Source: an archaeon (GTDB lineage: Archaea > Nanobdellota > Nanobdellia > Woesearchaeales > GCA-2686295). Taken from it: 64,000 nt of DNA. Where the stretch lies: positions 86,685-150,684 of the forward strand of contig JBDRCD010000010.1 of assembly GCA_043822105.1 (NCBI GenBank), written 5' to 3'. Below, one piece after another: positions 57,268 through 64,000 of this stretch. Position numbers and translations under genes: made by a program. The number at the start of each line of letters is the position of its first letter. The stretch's first letter is position 1. The notes beneath the pieces were generated by a model that worked only from the letters and a program-made list of their open reading frames with translations, did no database searches and had not been told where the DNA came from.

Positions 57268-58125
57268 TTAGAAAGTGGCGAGATAAGTTTTTGGTTTTAC
57301 TTCTTCTATTTCGACTGTGAATTTAGGTATGTTGTTGGGAGGATTAAATTCAATCTTTAGGTATTCAGGTACAATTATTTCTCCTGAACCATTTTTTTCT
57401 ATTCTGGCACTCATTTTGGCATTATCAGCCCACATTGTTTCTGGAAAACCATTAAAGTTAGTGGAATATTCGACTGTATTATTTTTTAAAACCTTTTTTT
57501 TCACGTGAATGCTATGCACTTTTCCTGCGTATGCAAATTGTACATCTCCTTCCAAATTGTTTCTAAGTATGGACATGAAAATATCATTTACAATCATAGT
57601 GTTTTCCGGCAGATATTTTCCTACGTTTAACTTCTTTTCTTCAATTAGTTTCATCTCTTTTTTTGTTGGATTGTAGTCGCTGTCAATGTTATATGAAACA
57701 ATTTTATAGATTCCTGACTCATTTTGTTTAACAACTATATTTTCCCATGTCTGTTTTGAATTAAGGGTGTTTCCTTCTTTCTCAAAAATGAAATCTTTCT
57801 TTCCTAGTTTTAATGGTCCAACTTTTAAATATGCTTCAGCATTTATTAATGAATAAAGTTTGTTCACAACTATATCTATGAATCCTATTGAAACTTTGAA
57901 TGGTTTTGTTATCTTCATCTTGAATTTTTGGGAATAGTTATCGAATGTTTTATTGTATTGAGAATTTGTAATTGATCCTAAATCAATTTCTTTTGCAGAA
58001 GCAATTTCTGAACTTGATTTAGATGTAGGTATCTCATTCTTTGCAGCATACAGTGTCTGTCCTTTGACTTGAGAACTAAGTGCCAGTACTACTGTGGTTA
58101 ATGTTAAAGCTGCTTTTGCTTTCAT
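57268..58125 (-). CDS. Hypothetical exported protein
   Basis: Signal peptide ending VKG-Q. Confidence 0.6.
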   Translation of the reverse strand: MKAKAALTLTTVVLALSSQVKGQTLYAAKNEIPTSKSSSEIASAKEIDLGSITNSQYNKTFDNYSQKFKMKITKPFKVSIGFIDIVVNKLYSLINAEAYLKVGPLKLGKKDFIFEKEGNTLNSKQTWENIVVKQNESGIYKIVSYNIDSDYNPTKKEMKLIEEKKLNVGKYLPENTMIVNDIFMSILRNNLEGDVQFAYAGKVHSIHVKKKVLKNNTVEYSTNFNGFPETMWADNAKMSARIEKNGSGEIIVPEYLKIEFNPPNNIPKFTVEIEEVKPKTYLATF

Positions 58126-58127
58126 CT

Positions 58128-59027
58128 CTACATCCTCGTCGTGTAATATGGTCCGTAGAGGTTGCCAGTCATTTTTACTAGACTGGCAAGATTGTATATT
58201 AGATACAGCTCTTTCCTCTCCACAGTTCCCATTAGTTTCTCTGCTCTTTTCCCTAATTCCTTTTTCTTTTTTTGAAATTTTGAAGCGTTTTCCTTATCAA
58301 ACTTGTAGAATAATTTATGAAACCTTGAGAAGAACTCGTTTGCTTCCCTGTATAGCTCCATTGTTTCTTTTCCTGGTACAAATGAGTTTTCCATCATGTA
58401 TGTGCTCATTTTTTCATAGTGGTCTGCAATCTTCTCTAAATCCCTGATTATTACGTAGTAGAACTGCGTCTTGTTGTGGTCTTTGTGGCCTTTTTTGTTC
58501 AGTACTCTTTTGCAGAAGTCTGTGAATTTGTCGACGCTGTTTTCCAGAGATATAACTCCTTTTAATCTTGTTTTATCCTTGTTTTTTATTGCTTCTAAGC
58601 TGTTTTTTCCCATCTCTTCTATGAGGTAGTACACTCTTCGGAACATGTTCTCAAACTGTTCTTCAAGCTCTACAGACACATTCTTTATTTCTACATGATT
58701 TTCTCCCTGGTCTATTATCTCGTAGCCCATGAGGTCCGGCAGTTTTTCCTGCAGTTTAGAATATATTTCCTGGTCTTTGTAGTTGACTCTTATTTCATCA
58801 ACTCCTGCCTGGTATAGGTATGCAATATATAGTGGATTAAAATCTTCTTCTGCGTCTATGATTACTTTTTTGCTCTCTTTTGCTTTTTCTGTGCTGACTG
58901 TGAGACTTTTTTCTTCCAGTTCTACGTCTAGTTCGTCTCCTTTTTGAATATTGTTTTGTTTAACCCATTTGCTTGGTAATGATAGAACTATTGTCTTCCC
59001 TGCTAGCTGTATTGCTCGTCTCTTCAT
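58128..59027 (-). CDS. AbrB-PhoU phosphate uptake regulator
   Basis: RAIQLAG...SLPSKW (AbrB), then VDKF and DLEKIADH (PhoU). Confidence 0.88.
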   Translation of the reverse strand: MKRRAIQLAGKTIVLSLPSKWVKQNNIQKGDELDVELEEKSLTVSTEKAKESKKVIIDAEEDFNPLYIAYLYQAGVDEIRVNYKDQEIYSKLQEKLPDLMGYEIIDQGENHVEIKNVSVELEEQFENMFRRVYYLIEEMGKNSLEAIKNKDKTRLKGVISLENSVDKFTDFCKRVLNKKGHKDHNKTQFYYVIIRDLEKIADHYEKMSTYMMENSFVPGKETMELYREANEFFSRFHKLFYKFDKENASKFQKKKKELGKRAEKLMGTVERKELYLIYNLASLVKMTGNLYGPYYTTRM

Positions 59028-59194
59028 TGTCGTTTCTACTCTCTGTTTTAGCTTTTCTACTATTTAAACATTTCGTTTATTATATAATTATATAGTACTA
59101 TATATATTATATGCATAAATTATATATCTTTTTTTCCGGTAATAGTAATTGTTTTTCCGAAAGAAACGAAAAACAAATGAAAAAGGTGATGGCA

Positions 59195-59653
59195 ATGGAT
59201 AAAAAAGATATAATGTTTTTAGCACACTTAAGAAACAACGCAAGAGAAACACTGACAAAGATAAGCAAGAAGACACACATACCAATATCAACGCTCTACG
59301 ACAGATTAAAGCTGCATGAAGGTGACATTATAACAAAGCACACAACACTAATAGACTTTGCAAAGCTAGGGTATTTATGCAAAGCAAACATTACAATAAA
59401 GGTTGATATTGAAGATAGAGACGCAGTTAGAGCATATTTGTTATGTCAAAACAATGTGAACTCTCTGTTCAAGATCAACAACGGCTATGATTTTTTGATA
59501 GAAGGAGTATTCAAACACGTAAAAGAGATGGAAGACTTCATGGAAACCTTTGAGAAGAAATACAGAGTTTTGGAAAAGAATGTATACTACATAATTGAAG
59601 ACCTGAAAAGAGAGAGTTTTATGGCTGAGACAGAAAATGTGAGTGTTGTATAA
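59195..59653 (+). CDS. Lrp/AsnC transcriptional regulator
   Basis: LRNNARETLTKISK...STLYDRL and IDFAKLG; GGTGA RBS upstream. Confidence 0.9.
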   Translation: MDKKDIMFLAHLRNNARETLTKISKKTHIPISTLYDRLKLHEGDIITKHTTLIDFAKLGYLCKANITIKVDIEDRDAVRAYLLCQNNVNSLFKINNGYDFLIEGVFKHVKEMEDFMETFEKKYRVLEKNVYYIIEDLKRESFMAETENVSVV

Positions 59654-59729
59654 CGAAACGACGAAAGCTTTTTCTTCGATCAGTTATAATATCAAAAGAT
59701 TTATATCTTTATAATTTTTTTTACATAAA

Positions 59730-60917
59730 ATGAATTTTCATATTAATGGAAAAAATGTGAAAATAATTTTTAATTATAATAATTATTCTAAAAGAAAGTA
59801 TAGAAATGACTTTAAAGATTTCTTAGATTATCACACAAAAAGGGAGGAAAAAGACCCTGAGCAAGTTAGACAATTTGATTTAAAAAGAATTTTTTATAAA
59901 GAATTTCAAACAATTCCTTATAAAGGACTTGCAGCATATTTATCTGAAAGGTATAGCTATGAATTTTTCATGAAAACTGCTAATTATTTTTTTATTAAAA
60001 TACTTGAAAAAGTACTAAATGATTATCCAAAGATAATTACTTCTGAGGAATTTGAAATTCAAGTTCAAGTGATAAGGATTGTAAGAAGAGAATATTATGG
60101 GGCTTATGATCCCGAACCATCTGATAAAGATCATGCGTATATTGAGTTTAATGCTGTATGGGTTCTTAATAACATAGTTATGCCTTGGGCACTTTATAAG
60201 AAGATAAATTATCAACTGATATATAAATTTCTAGTGCATGAACTTTATCATCATGTTGATAATATAGCGGAAGCTTTTATTTATGAAGACAAACTAGAAG
60301 ATAAATTAAAATTGAAATCTAAAAAGATATCTAATTATGGAGTTTTATTCCTTTTTTCTGTATTATTTGAGTTGAGGGCAGAGGGTTTTGCAGAATTCGC
60401 TTCAAGAAATTCAAATCGTTTTGAAATAAACAAGAATAAAATATTAGAATTTAAAAAAAATCTTTGGATCCTTGTTACTAAAAGAAAAAAAGCAGATGCA
60501 GAATATTTCTTTAATAAAAAATTATCAACAGAATCCTATGCAACTTATTACTCTGGAAATCTTATGTGTTTTATAATAGCATTATTCTTTTGTAAAAATG
60601 TTACGAACCAACCTAAAATTATATTTGATGGAAAAGAATTTCCCATAATTGATTTAAATAGACTAATTGACACAAAAAAAACTGTTTCGATAATGGGAAT
60701 GCCTAGGGAGATTTATCAAAAAACATTATCATATGTGAACTCGATTGGGCCTGCGGAATTCTTAAATATGTATAATCATGCATGTGATCATTTAGAAATA
60801 TCATATGACAATCGAGTTTTATGGTGGAAAGAATTTATTAAGTTAAAAAAGAAGACAACAGAAATTTATGAAGCCGATAGATTAAAAAAAGTCATCAAAA
60901 AAGGATATACTATATAA
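59730..60917 (+). CDS. Hypothetical HEXXH metalloprotease-like protein
   Basis: LVHELYH...AEGFAEF (gluzincin-like); very AT-rich. Confidence 0.65.
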   Translation: MNFHINGKNVKIIFNYNNYSKRKYRNDFKDFLDYHTKREEKDPEQVRQFDLKRIFYKEFQTIPYKGLAAYLSERYSYEFFMKTANYFFIKILEKVLNDYPKIITSEEFEIQVQVIRIVRREYYGAYDPEPSDKDHAYIEFNAVWVLNNIVMPWALYKKINYQLIYKFLVHELYHHVDNIAEAFIYEDKLEDKLKLKSKKISNYGVLFLFSVLFELRAEGFAEFASRNSNRFEINKNKILEFKKNLWILVTKRKKADAEYFFNKKLSTESYATYYSGNLMCFIIALFFCKNVTNQPKIIFDGKEFPIIDLNRLIDTKKTVSIMGMPREIYQKTLSYVNSIGPAEFLNMYNHACDHLEISYDNRVLWWKEFIKLKKKTTEIYEADRLKKVIKKGYTI

Positions 60918-60965
60918 CCTCAAAATTAAATGATGCTGTACTTCTTATAATTTATTTTTTTACCC

Positions 60966-61142
60966 TTATTTTTTAGAATAAATTATGTATTCAATAATTA
61001 ATGTGAACAACGGAAACAGAATACTCAAAACAATAGAAGTATCTTTTCCTATATTAGTTGTTCCTAAAATGAAGAATAGAATTAATCCTAGAGTGATTGC
61101 TTGTAAGATTCCAAAAATGTAAAAAATGTTATTATTTTGCAT
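60966..61142 (-). CDS. Small two-TM protein (58 aa; below the ORF-track cutoff)
   Basis: Manual translation MQNNNIFYIFGILQAITLGLILFFILGTT...FTLIIEYIIYSKK. Confidence 0.55.
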   Translation of the reverse strand: MQNNNIFYIFGILQAITLGLILFFILGTTNIGKDTSIVLSILFPLFTLIIEYIIYSKK

Positions 61143-61195
61143 AATGTTAGATTAATTTCTTATGTATATAAAACTTTCGTCAGGGCAAAAATGAA

Positions 61196-61223
61196 ATTGA
61201 ACATAATTCCTGTTAGTTTCTTT
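61196..61223. repeat. dif/att-like site A
   Basis: ATTGAACATAA-TTCCTG-TTAGTTTCTTT. Confidence 0.75.
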
Positions 61224-61399
61224 GACCCTACAACGTGGGGTCAAATTTCGTCCGAAAAGTTCAGAAAACGGCCGTTCATCCACGGAGCGAATGCGACACA
61301 TAAATTTAAACAATGAAGGGCAAGGGTTATTCATTATTGTATCTAAATAGTAGTAACAAAATAGAAAGATTTATAAATCTATTATTATCTGCTATTGTT

Positions 61400-61957
61400 A
61401 TGTTAGATACTGGATTTCATTATATGAGCGAAAGAAGATGGAATGAATTAAATCATGATATAAATGATTCTAAAGTCATCAAACCTGGAAGAAGATTTGT
61501 GAGATTAAGAAGTATTGCAGATCCAGATATTCCTAAATTGCCAGATTGGGCACATGATGGTTATATTTTTGCATTTCCAGATAAAGAAGCACCAGAACCT
61601 TGGAAAGGATATGAACATTGGAAGGATGAATGGGACATTTTAACTGGAGATATTGGAGAAAAAATAGTGGGTGTAAGGTTTGAGATTCTTCCATCAGATG
61701 AGGCATATGTTGTAGATAGAGCACATCATGCAGATTTTCAATGGAAACACAATGGAGATAGACAAGATGCAATTAGAAAATATGCTTTATCAAGAGTTCC
61801 TGCAAGCGAATATGATGGAAGTTTTAGAATGCCAGAATTACTAATAAGAAATCCAATAGACTTAGAAAGATTAATACAACATAGTGCATTTACAAGAGAT
61901 ATAGTTAGAAATAATGGTGAATGGACTATCGAATATAAGCCCAGCCCTATAGACTAA
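61400..61957 (+). CDS. Hypothetical protein (cargo of module 1)
   Basis: ORF lies between sites A and B; start moved to ATG 61400. Confidence 0.65.
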   Translation: MLDTGFHYMSERRWNELNHDINDSKVIKPGRRFVRLRSIADPDIPKLPDWAHDGYIFAFPDKEAPEPWKGYEHWKDEWDILTGDIGEKIVGVRFEILPSDEAYVVDRAHHADFQWKHNGDRQDAIRKYALSRVPASEYDGSFRMPELLIRNPIDLERLIQHSAFTRDIVRNNGEWTIEYKPSPID

Positions 61958-61973
61958 TTAGGTCGTTTTCTGA

Positions 61974-62001
61974 ATTGAAACTAATCCTTGTTATATTCTT
62001 G
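61974..62001. repeat. dif/att-like site B
   Basis: ATTGAAACTAA-TCCTTG-TTATATTCTTG. Confidence 0.75.
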
Positions 62002-62089
62002 AGGCTTTTTTTTTAAGCCGAAACAAGAAACCGTAGGTTTCGCAGAGTAACGCCCAAGAGTTTGTAATTTTTTAACTCTAAAAGGCGTT

Positions 62090-62117
62090 ATTGAATATAA
62101 TCCTTGTTATATGAGGG
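62090..62117. repeat. dif/att-like site C
   Basis: ATTGAATATAA-TCCTTG-TTATATGAGGG. Confidence 0.75.
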
Positions 62118-62193
62118 TGAGCGAAGCGAAAGGCTACAAGCCGTCCCCGAGGATTTGCGAAACAAACCGCAGAGTTGAGAAAAGGCACTTAAA

Positions 62194-62421
62194 TTACTTA
62201 TTTTTTATTTCATATAATTTATTTCTTATAAATGAAAATCTGAATACACATAAGAAAAAAAACACAAATAAAAACCCTACCAAAACCAGCTTACTAATTA
62301 GAGTATTTCCAAATATTATTTCATTTATCTCGCTTGTAATTAATAATATACTTACAGTTATTCCTCCAATGAGTGAGAGATATAAATTCTTAGAATCTTC
62401 TGGGTCTAATGGCCATTTCAT
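62194..62421 (-). CDS. Small two-TM protein (cargo of module 3)
   Basis: ATGA overlap with the upstream lipoprotein gene. Confidence 0.6.
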   Translation of the reverse strand: MKWPLDPEDSKNLYLSLIGGITVSILLITSEINEIIFGNTLISKLVLVGFLFVFFFLCVFRFSFIRNKLYEIKNK

Positions 62422-62810
62422 TTTATTTGTAAACAATTAGATTTTATGAAATTACCTTCTTTATCAAATTCAACTGAATAACTAAGGTCTAATTTTTCTT
62501 TGATTGAACCATCCTGATTTAGAACAGTTTTATGTAATTTTGCACTATTTATTCCAGAAGAGTATCCACAGTAATAATGATCAGGAAATTCGCCTTGATT
62601 TGTACCCATTCTACATTTAGGAGTATTAAATTCAACTTTCCAATCAGCTATTTCTTTTGGCAATACTGCAAATGGAGATTGCATACTTGACCCTTCATTT
62701 AAAGTTGCATTTGTGATTGGACATTTAACATCATTGATTATACTAATGTCATTAACATTACATCCTGTTAGTAAAATCAAAAAAAAAATTAAAAGCATTA
62801 TTTTTTGCAT
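62418..62810 (-). CDS. Putative lipoprotein (cargo of module 3)
   Basis: LLTGC lipobox. Confidence 0.7.
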   Translation of the reverse strand: MQKIMLLIFFLILLTGCNVNDISIINDVKCPITNATLNEGSSMQSPFAVLPKEIADWKVEFNTPKCRMGTNQGEFPDHYYCGYSSGINSAKLHKTVLNQDGSIKEKLDLSYSVEFDKEGNFIKSNCLQIK

Positions 62811-62875
62811 AATTGTGATTTATAATGGATATTTAAATAATTATTGTTTTGTTAAGGCTTAAGTGCCTTTTCTCA

Positions 62876-62903
62876 ATTTCGTTTAACCCTTGTTATATTC
62901 TTG
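62876..62903. repeat. dif/att-like site D
   Basis: ATTTCGTTTAA-CCCTTG-TTATATTCTTG. Confidence 0.7.
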
Positions 62904-62992
62904 AGGCTTTTTTTTAAGCCGAAACAAGAAACCGTAGGTTTCGCAGAGTAACGCCATAAAAATTTCTAATTTTTAAATGAAATGTTGGCGTT

Positions 62993-63020
62993 ATTGAATA
63001 TAATTCCTGTTAGTTTCTTT
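62993..63020. repeat. dif/att-like site E
   Basis: ATTGAATATAA-TTCCTG-TTAGTTTCTTT. Confidence 0.75.
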
Positions 63021-63198
63021 GACCCTACAACGTGGGGTCAAATTTCGTCCGAAAAGTTTTTTCGGGGGCGTATTCCATCAAGCGAACACAGTGAGCCATC
63101 AAGAATAAACATCAAGGGGCAATTTTCAGTTCGTCGTTTCGTAGGGGGAAATTCCGAGTCCTATCGGACAGAGTGCTTTTTTCTGCGGAAAAAGAAAT

Positions 63199-64000
63199 TT
63201 ATAAAAATTCTTTCAAATATTTTCCTGTATAGCTTTTCTGGCATTTAATCAATTCTTCAGGAGTTCCTTCAAACAAGATTTCTCCACCCTTAGAACCTCC
63301 TTCAGGGCCTAAGTCTATAACCCAATCAGCATGTTTAACAACATCAAGGTTATGCTCAATTACAATTACAGTATTATCATTATCAACCAGATTTTTTATT
63401 ATTTTCATTAATTTGTCAATATCTGCCATATGCAAACCTGTTGTTGGCTCATCCATAACATATATATTTCCTTTTTTGTGTAGTTCAGATGCCAGTTTGA
63501 TTCTTTGGCATTCTCCACCAGACAATGTGCTTAATGGTTGTCCAAGTTCTAAATAATCCAGACCCACATCACATAAAATTTGTAGTTTTCTTTTAATTTC
63601 TTTATTCTCAAAAAAATCAACTAGCTCCTTAACAGTCAGGCTCAAAATATCAAAAATACTTTTTCCATTATACTTTAATGCTAAAACCTTTTCAGTATAT
63701 CTTTTTCCATTACATTCGTCACAAGTAACTTTGACTTCATCCATAAAACTCATTTCATAGCTTATTGTTCCGAGCCCCTTACATTTAGGACATGCTCCTT
63801 TTGAATTGAAACTAAACAGGGCAGGATTTGTGTTGGTTGCGTCAGCGAATTCTTTTCTTATTAAGTCGAAAACTCCTATATAAGTCGCTGGATTAGAACG
63901 GGAAGATTTTCCAACTGGAGATTGGTCTATAATAATTGCATCTTTATTCTCTTTTACAAAAATATCATTTATCAAACTACTTTTTCCTGAACCTGCAACT
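63199..64000 (-). CDS. UvrA-family ABC ATPase, C-terminal part (possibly UvrA2/DrrC-like)
   Basis: VAGSGKSSLI at the window edge, RSNPATY, CPKC...CDEC, LSGGECQR, DEPTTGLH and IEHN. Confidence 0.9.
   Translation of the reverse strand, partial: VAGSGKSSLINDIFVKENKDAIIIDQSPVGKSSRSNPATYIGVFDLIRKEFADATNTNPALFSFNSKGACPKCKGLGTISYEMSFMDEVKVTCDECNGKRYTEKVLALKYNGKSIFDILSLTVKELVDFFENKEIKRKLQILCDVGLDYLELGQPLSTLSGGECQRIKLASELHKKGNIYVMDEPTTGLHMADIDKLMKIIKNLVDNDNTVIVIEHNLDVVKHADWVIDLGPEGGSKGGEILFEGTPEELIKCQKSYTGKYLKEFL

Follow-up and report, generated by a model that had tools for sequence, protein, structure and literature searches.

We find an array of small gene modules, bounded by sites of the Xer/dif type, at the right-hand end of a 64,000-nucleotide stretch of DNA from a Woesearchaeales archaeon. 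This stretch (the window) corresponds to G000:C10:86685-150684, where G000 is the 1.17-Mb source assembly and C10 the contig that carries the window. Five 28-bp sites within it (S1 to S5) appear to be dif-type core sites of the XerA family, which form the junctions of tandem, non-autonomous gene modules. We consider the whole to be an archaeal Xer/dif cassette platform, a reading to which we assign a probability of roughly 60%. The array looks like an archaeal way, so far undescribed, of collecting and swapping accessory genes. No published dif-site arrays or integrative mobile elements exploiting Xer (IMEX) were found for Archaea in open-access papers and bioRxiv, and the words IMEX and “dif-like” are absent from a review of archaeal tyrosine recombinases (PMC8371274).

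All five sites lie on the forward strand and share one form: a left arm ATT-N5-TAA, a 6-nt spacer ending in TG, and a right arm TTA-N8. S1 (61196-61223), the left boundary of the array, comprises a left arm at 61196-61206, a spacer at 61207-61212, and a right arm at 61213-61223, and has no mismatch to a 25-nt template built on the two arms. S2 (61974-62001) and S5 (62993-63020) were recognized by their form and by the template scan. S3 (62090-62117) has two mismatches to the template, and S4 (62876-62903), which has a divergent left arm, has three. The spacers from S1 to S5 read TTCCTG, TCCTTG, TCCTTG, CCCTTG, and TTCCTG. Re-reading the sequence thus bears out the start coordinates (61196, 61974, 62090, 62876, and 62993), the strand, and the spacers that had been reported in an earlier note on this DNA (the original prediction). 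S1 and S5 fall within a 66-bp direct repeat (98% identity). No further copies of the S1/S5 repeat, or of the repeat formed by the second and fourth modules described below, were found elsewhere in the assembly.

The significance of these sites depends on how much of the site is considered. The short core TAA-N4-TG-TTA is not significantly enriched in the window (10 matches vs. 5.9 ± 2.9 expected; 11 of 100 shuffles reach 10), and five of its 10 matches share one strand inside 1.8 kb. The 25-nt two-arm template has three exact matches in the 1.17-Mb assembly, all three of them at the array locus. With up to three mismatches allowed, five genome shuffles yield 193-213 matches and the real count is similar, so that loose matches are uninformative. 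The possibility that the motif occurs at chance level in AT-rich DNA is therefore realized for the short core word and not for the exact two-arm template, which is confined to this locus.

The arms of these sites resemble those of a dif site on which XerA is known to act. The commonest left arm here agrees at 10 of 11 positions with that of a Pyrococcus abyssi dif oligonucleotide, and the inner right arm has the same base at six of six positions. This oligonucleotide, whose sequence is printed in the Methods of Cortez 2010, is bound and recombined by XerA. Cortez 2010 and Serre 2013 describe archaeal dif as a pair of inverted 11-bp arms separated by a 6-bp spacer, at whose borders the strands are cleaved. 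Because of the 11-6-11 layout and the likeness of the arms to P. abyssi dif, S1 to S5 are, as judged by layout and sequence, dif-type sites. The Xer/dif architecture that had originally been proposed for them is thus upheld.

The sites divide the array into five modules on the forward strand. We place the module borders at the boundary between the left arm and the spacer, a shift of six bases from the borders given originally. M1 (61207-61984) and M3 (62101-62886) carry cargo. M2 (61985-62100; 116 bp) and M4 (62887-63003; 117 bp) are two copies of one element and contain no gene. M5, the last module, runs from 63004 to the left arm of a terminal site beyond the window. These modules share a common plan: a spacer, a right arm, a hairpin head that ends in AGT, a left inverted repeat (IR-L), the cargo, a right inverted repeat (IR-R), and a left arm that begins with ATT. 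We quantified this plan in nine arrays, comprising 33 modules and 42 junction sites, with arms scored at their five inner positions.

We show that the two ends of a module tend to match each other. A module's own right and left arms are exact complements in 19 of the 33 modules, compared with 4.1 ± 1.6 (maximum 12) under random pairing, and the matches include rare arm variants. Three further modules match at four of the five positions and 11 at three or fewer. Of the 42 junction sites, only 7 have arms that complement each other. In the window, the first eight and last eight bases of a module pair at 8/8 positions in M1, M2, and M4 and at 6/8 in M3 (inner five positions, M1 to M4: 5, 5, 3, and 5). 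The claim that a module's first bases complement its own last arm, exactly in M1, M2, and M4 and imperfectly in M3, therefore stands, and it extends to the arrays of relatives. Exact inverted repeats of at least 10 nt also flank the cargo in 18 of 33 modules, vs. 2.2% when tails are swapped.

The heads consist of ~40-70 nt of hairpins with AGT at the end. They are 92-98% identical between families, and this likeness extends from the left-arm TAA to IR-L. In head type A (eight copies from six genomes), 7 of 12 pairs show compensatory changes, and 96.9% of cells are paired, vs. 76.5% in shuffles (0 of 500 reach the observed value) and at most 59% when partners are slid. AGT directly precedes IR-L in 14 of 16 modules, and IR-R abuts the ATT of the left arm.

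Each of these parts can be located in the window, on the forward strand throughout. The type A head of M1 (61213-61260) contains the right arm, hairpin 1 (61221-61228 with 61238-61245), hairpin 2 (61246-61249 with 61254-61257), and the terminal AGT, and shows compensatory changes. It is followed by IR-L (61261-61273), which, aligned by eye, pairs with IR-R (61961-61973) at 12 of 13 positions and includes an 11-nt exact inverted repeat; IR-R directly precedes the left arm of S2. In M3, a type B head (62107-62175) has 94% identity over 79 nt, from the left-arm TAA to the start of IR-L, to a locus in the relative G009. The 18-nt IR-L of M3 (62175-62192) is the perfect complement of its IR-R (62859-62876), which abuts the left arm of S4. 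The start of M5 (63010-63198) is again a type A head up to ~63060 (98% identity to the head of M1), followed by GC-rich conserved blocks.

The gene-less modules compress the same plan into a single fold. M2 consists, in order, of the spacer, the right arm, two hairpins, AGT, a short inverted repeat around an AT-rich loop, and the left arm. Its DNA is predicted to fold into a multi-branch single strand closed by its own two arms (−16.6 kcal/mol; z = −2.96). M4 is likewise predicted to form a multi-branch structure closed by its arms (z = −4.54). Weakly better folds than in shuffles are obtained for the first 147 nt of M5 (z = −2.17) and the first 64 nt of M1 (z = −1.41), and the type B head of M3, folded alone, does no better than its shuffles (z = +0.67).

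Gene-less modules were also seen in two relatives. In G017:C5 (L050:394-621), three sites stand at an exact spacing of 100 bp and delimit two near-identical gene-less modules of 100 bp, 1.4 kb upstream of the recombinase gene described below. In G006, tandem gene-less modules of 116 bp lie at a contig end. A solitary site of the same kind occurs in the source assembly outside the window (G000:C4:8788-8815), where it overlaps the stop codon of a 310-amino acid (aa) open reading frame (ORF). It is followed by another head type with the AGTGCAACG motif and then by a gene for a 496-aa secreted protein. No partner left arm was found near this site, and that contig carries no recombinase.

The recombinase that the original prediction had expected outside the window, as a host XerA or an integrase, is present next to the array. 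A gene for a 285-aa tyrosine recombinase lies at L007:2514-3371, 2.5 kb past the window end and in the same direction as the array, with a terminal site of its own before it. Its best family is archaeal XerA (NF040815; 201.5 bits vs. an NCBIfam cut-off of 220), and its closest solved relatives are IntI4 and two XerA proteins. The insert specific to IntI is missing: 12 query residues stand in place of 53 of IntI4 (query 193-205 vs. IntI4 185-238). Integron-integrase models score far below their cut-offs (187.6 vs. 265 for TIGR02249 and 115 vs. 435 for another). No PF00589 match was found inside the array, and the cargo ORFs of M1 and M3 belong to no recombinase family. In the relatives G106 and G017, the array-linked recombinase is the only strong Xer-like protein. 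The source assembly has a second XerA-like gene (G000:C11:52204-53133; 269-309 aa), which scores above the XerA cut-off (263.3 bits), has 36% identity to the array-linked one, and has no dif-like site nearby. Several relatives likewise possess a paralogue of this type in addition to their array-linked recombinase.

The terminal site, at L007:2299-2326 (C10:152298-152325), combines an ordinary left arm and a spacer with a right arm whose first bases are ATA rather than TTA. It lies ~215 bp upstream of the recombinase start codon. The array therefore spans S1 to the terminal site, which places a UvrA-like gene inside the last module. We scanned the regions upstream of the recombinase gene in 30 genomes for the pattern ATT-N5-TAA-N6-ATA and found it in 17, compared with 0.88 in shuffles, 3 on the opposite strand, and 0 in the gene itself. 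Six genomes have a core site next to, and ahead of, the terminal site. In five of these (G006, G136, G118, G046, and G030), the terminal left arm and the right arm of the last module are complementary at no fewer than seven of eight positions; G000 is the sixth case and is discussed below. The terminal site beside the recombinase gene could be regarded as an analogue of the primary site of integrons (attI).

We find that this arrangement recurs among relatives of the source organism. Of 149 published genomes of the order, 28 encode a relative of the recombinase with at least 46% identity, a count that leaves out the unpublished genomes G141, G130, and G121. Public homologues of the recombinase are labelled Woesearchaeota, Nanoarchaeota, or DPANN by their sources. 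We read arrays of the same site type in G006, G106, G031, G017, G157, G030, G033, and others. The same architecture with different cargo is present in independent assemblies of at least nine other genomes, one of them a single 1.13-Mb contig. Where gene and array stand on one contig (G000, G006, G106, G017, G157, G030, and G009), the array is upstream of the recombinase and in the same direction. G025 shows a match to head type A ~2 kb upstream of a recombinase of 41% identity. In 13 of 30 genomes, the contig leaves fewer than 700 bp upstream of the recombinase gene; such breaks would be expected of a repeated or variable array.

The boundary elements recur, and the cargo does not. The GC-rich boundary elements match many of 40 relatives, across families of one order, and ~19 genomes match heads or sites. 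The cargo DNA of M1 and M3 has only short AT-rich matches in the same 40 relatives, eight of which belong to the same genus. Module content is thus not fixed, as the original prediction requires of shuffled cassettes. The cargo of G106 stands in either orientation and includes peptidases, LigT, a major facilitator superfamily (MFS) transporter, and proteins without an assigned function. In the flanks, the only feature shared with the loci of relatives is the recombinase gene, plus its upstream region in G006. The array is therefore not defined by conserved neighbours.

Sequencing reads and other metagenomes give a further view of the locus. Three DNA runs contain 5-7% of the words sampled, and their contigs (85% likeness) cover only heads and a promoter-like motif. 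No joint falls at a site, and the two joints listed, at 61261/61262, are short-sided; the runs thus have no bearing on excision in either direction. In contigs of three other metagenomes, blocks of M5 begin or stop at 63053, 63073, 63105, 63131, and 63143, and in one such contig the block from 63053 stands behind the end of a different head type. Because this block is found behind a different head, the sequences hint that heads may be exchangeable at the AGT border.

The position of the array on the chromosome can be examined in G106, which is one contig of 1,131,583 bp. In sampled 20-kb stretches, the first 380 kb have negative GC skew, the region of 420-950 kb has mostly positive skew, and the stretches from 1036 kb onward are negative again; AT skew changes sign within 1036-1076 kb. 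The orc1/cdc6 gene, at 440.6 kb, lies by the skew switch at ~400 kb, and a second switch falls at ~1000-1076 kb. The array (1045.4-1056.0 kb) and its recombinase gene (1041.4-1042.2 kb) are located at this second switch, opposite orc1/cdc6. For contig C10 itself, the maximum of cumulative GC skew falls in the bin containing the array, after which just 11.7 kb of contig remain. This 161.7-kb contig is chromosomal, with FtsZ, ligase, and other core genes beside the array. In some archaea, according to a review, xerA and dif form one module. Given the terminus position in G106, the sole strong Xer-like proteins of G106 and G017, and the existence of such modules, the recombinase gene and its terminal site most likely represent the xerA/dif module of the chromosome itself, located at the replication terminus.

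The distribution of spacers bears on where exchange takes place. The original prediction had placed the cut between G and TT, at the right-hand border of the spacer, and this we do not find borne out. The spacer accompanies the right arm and the head: in five groups of sites it is the same or differs at one or two bases, and one of these groups has four copies with different left arms. Sites that are alike in tail and left arm differ in their spacer (three groups). Since the spacer travels with the right-hand module, exchange between TAA and the spacer appears more likely than exchange between G and TT.

We propose that the modules are cassettes that exploit the chromosomal xerA/dif unit and that its recombinase acts on the sites. 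A free module would be circular, its left arm, spacer, and right arm joined into a palindromic site. Strand exchange at the boundary between the left arm and the spacer would then insert or excise it. Because arms and inverted repeats co-vary within a module and differ between modules, the reaction probably involves folding, in which a cruciform or a folded single strand would join the module's ends, as for integron attC. A single strand exchange completed by replication, as is established for integron cassettes and CTX phage, would fit both the unlike spacers and the intrastrand pairing. A more far-reaching version of this proposal can be offered only tentatively. It would hold that Woesearchaeales-type DPANN archaea turned xerA/dif into a gene-capture platform, invented apart from integrons, in which mini-cassettes, circular or single-stranded and with a palindromic dif core, fold so that their arms and inverted repeats enclose the cargo inside a hairpin, and are stacked at the terminus by one strand exchange at the boundary between left arm and spacer. 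Interchangeable structured heads would serve as an accessory recognition element, and the platform would be a main route for accessory genes in these small genomes; as a whole, this version is possible and somewhat doubtful.

Several observations weigh against a cassette platform of this kind. Neither circular junctions nor empty sites or rearranged orders were observed; the matching runs covered heads alone. The loose pattern search of 151 genomes is noisy, since the reversed pattern, used as a control, returned counts that were a substantial part of the forward ones; the search served only to choose loci and not to count arrays. The recombinase scores under the NCBIfam cut-off for XerA. A second Xer-like gene is present in G000, G006, G157, and G031; that of G006 and of G157 has the higher score for Pfam Phage_integrase, and that of G031 is a truncated frame at a contig start. 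The strict terminal pattern is missing from 13 of 30 upstream regions, and in G000 the terminal left arm is not complementary to the right arm of M5, the last module. Perfect self-complementarity is lacking in 14 of 33 modules, M3 among them. The terminus placement comes from one genome only, read in sampled stretches. The spacer argument draws on eight small groups, and unlike spacers would hinder an ordinary two-strand Xer exchange. Wobble asymmetry in the cargo-flanking repeats gives no strand call (3 G-T and 8 A-C among 288 cells from 16 modules).

Comparison with known systems helps to place the array. It is like archaeal XerA/dif in its 28-bp 11-6-11 site, its P. abyssi-like arms, an enzyme whose best family is XerA, and its position at a skew switch in G106. 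It is unlike XerA/dif in that dif is single-copy, whereas here five sites and the terminal one stand in direct order with genes between them, and the solitary site on C4 is a further copy. The array also adds structured heads, cargo-flanking inverted repeats, and a terminal right arm that begins with ATA. Its recombinase, moreover, is under the cut-off of the XerA model, and some genomes have a second paralogue. The bacterial XerS/difSL and XerH/difH systems similarly have one recombinase whose gene lies immediately beside its own dif site and acts with it as a unit. They differ in being bacterial and in site length (difSL is 31 bp, with an 11-bp centre), and the passages that describe them mention no cassette arrays.

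A closer parallel is offered by elements that exploit Xer. As the accounts consulted here describe them, IMEX (the CTX, TLC, and VGJ phages and the gonococcal island) are without a recombinase of their own and sit at chromosomal dif, often in tandem, with dif-like hybrid flanks; in some of them the substrate is a folded single strand, and only one pair of strands is exchanged. The array resembles them, in anatomy only, in having modules at dif with dif-like flanking sites and no recombinase inside. Known IMEX, however, are bacterial, use XerC/XerD, and for the most part are phages or islands that bring replication or transfer genes with them. The modules described here are between 0.1 and 4 kb long, contain at most a few accessory genes and sometimes none, and follow a shared plan of heads and inverted repeats. 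The dif modules of Acinetobacter, in the descriptions available to us, are small, non-autonomous, Xer-bounded rows of accessory genes that are thought to be shuffled by host Xer proteins. They are mostly plasmid-borne and depend on XerC and XerD, whereas the present array is chromosomal, stands beside a recombinase gene, and is associated with a single recombinase type. In Acinetobacter dif modules, the flanking sites are in alternating (inverted) orientation. Here, in contrast, all sites have one polarity, and the modules have heads and internal inverted repeats.

The likeness to integrons is of a more general sort. Integrons, too, have a recombinase with a special adjoining site, and an array of promoter-poor cassettes with diverse cargo and complementary ends. 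In addition, boundary elements are more alike within than between lineages in both, and both probably involve single-strand folding (for integrons, see Ghaly 2022). The present system differs in its lack of the IntI insert, its dif-type duplex cores, the enclosure of its cargo by paired ends, and an exchange point that we place between TAA and the spacer. Furthermore, the recombinase is downstream of the array and in the same direction. The attC sites of integrons are imperfect palindromes of 57-141 nt (R''-L''...L'-R') at the 3' end of each cassette. The view that the sites are not canonical attC is supported, on anatomy, by their 11-6-11 cores and by cargo that lies inside the pairing ends; the recombinase, too, lacks the integron-integrase insert. 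By analogy, the array may be viewed as like bacterial IMEX and Acinetobacter dif modules in kind, and integron-like in effect, while it fails at least one defining test of each. The aloposons of Asgard archaea were set aside as unrelated.

We considered whether the modules could be non-autonomous transposable elements, similar to miniature inverted-repeat or palindrome-associated transposable elements (MITE- or PATE-like), that a transposase moves as single strands and targets to the dif region, with the terminal inverted repeats and subterminal hairpins as signals for the transposase and the recombinase as a bystander. Such elements would account for module ends that are inverted repeats, for covarying hairpins near one end, and for gene-less copies of 100-130 bp that are tandem and multiple; Acinetobacter insertion sequences are also reported (PMC10132070) to target dif and pdif sites. 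We nevertheless regard a transposon origin as unlikely. Each junction is a full dif-type site (11-6-11) rather than a target duplication, the flanks of M4 differ from each other, and a terminal site precedes the recombinase gene in 17 of 30 genomes. A search confined to one transposase family, Y1 HUH (PF01797), found it in none of five array-bearing genomes and in 6 of 14 controls. The heads and gene-less modules might also be genes for small structured RNAs, or regulatory elements, that local duplication has multiplied; the dif-like words would then belong to these RNAs or to their promoters, and nothing would be mobile. They are GC-rich islands in DNA of 35% GC, they have compensatory hairpins and fold z scores of −3 to −4.5, they are conserved across families, and the gene-less modules contain an AT-rich TATA-like loop. 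This is decidedly unlikely, because no Rfam family comes near threshold, and because the heads keep one orientation relative to the sites while the cargo genes stand in either. An RNA function would also leave unexplained the ends that remain complementary across up to 4 kb of cargo, the terminal site, the linkage to a recombinase, and the likeness to a tested dif.

Archaeal integrons have been reported from 75 metagenome-assembled genomes, Nanoarchaeota included, according to the part of Ghaly 2022 that covers them, and the array might be one of these, or a cluster of attC sites lacking an integron-integrase (CALIN), with attC that is merely divergent. The best solved match of the recombinase is indeed IntI4, and the cassette ends are self-complementary. 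We consider this very improbable, given the absence of the IntI-specific insert, the integrase models far below their cut-offs, the duplex-type 11-6-11 cores, and the location of the cargo inside the paired ends rather than outside a hairpin. Least credible of all is a chance likeness in AT-rich DNA or an artefact of assembly. It is true that the core word is not enriched, that loose matches equal those of shuffles, and that the M2/M4 and S1/S5 repeats could mislead an assembler. Exact long matches, however, are confined to this locus, and the architecture reappears with different cargo in at least nine other independent assemblies. The statistics for end complementarity, head covariation, inverted repeats, and the terminal site also speak against chance. 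The Xer/dif cassette platform thus remains the reading that we prefer.

How accessory genes are gained and exchanged in the tiny genomes of DPANN archaea is poorly known. A cassette platform built on chromosome-resolution machinery would, if real, provide these archaea with an integron-like route for gene flow. It would also be the first archaeal counterpart of the bacterial elements that exploit Xer, and would explain the frequent assembly breaks beside the recombinase gene. The covariation of arms and inverted repeats within modules would make a second, independent case, beside attC, for structure-specific recombination. The signature of site, head, and terminal site could be used to find and delimit such arrays, and their accessory genes, in thousands of metagenome-assembled genomes.

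The cargo of the window itself consists mostly of proteins without a recognized family. M1 carries one gene on the forward strand (61400-61957), which encodes 185 aa from this ATG within a frame that is open from 61313. An AT-rich, TATA-like motif on the same strand (61343-61378) lies ~25-55 nt 5' of the gene start. This motif is found at single places in many relatives (85-97% identity) and has a sub-threshold match to Rfam CRISPR-DR27; from its sequence, it is probably a common promoter consensus. The M1 protein has 17 homologues (114-201 aa; 50-85% identity), mostly on very short contigs, and the single organism-labelled one is from Nanoarchaeota. It belongs to no Pfam or NCBIfam family, and its leads in a protein atlas, to ADP-ribosyltransferase-like clusters (DarT, Arr, and DUF3990), were weak and below the recognition mark. 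M3 has two ORFs on the reverse strand. The one at 62194-62436 encodes a hydrophobic protein of 80 aa without a family, and the one at 62418-62810 encodes a 130-aa protein whose signal is of the lipoprotein type (LPAM_1, 18.7 bits against a cut-off of 20).

No tRNA was found in the window (ARAGORN), and an Rfam search of 58000-64000 at E values up to 10 returned six matches, all far under their gathering scores. To the left of the array are two genes, at 59730-60917 (a 395-aa protein without a family) and 60966-61142 (a 58-aa membrane peptide). They have no counterpart beside the arrays of relatives and could be old cargo with decayed sites. The UvrA-like gene of the last module occupies 63199-64000 on the reverse strand with its 3' part and extends to C10:152138, for a total of ~751-755 aa. 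This frame (755 aa) is short for a UvrA: two stretches match the UvrA model, skipping model positions ~120-266, which we take to be the UvrB-binding part. It is the sole UvrA-family gene found in the assembly.

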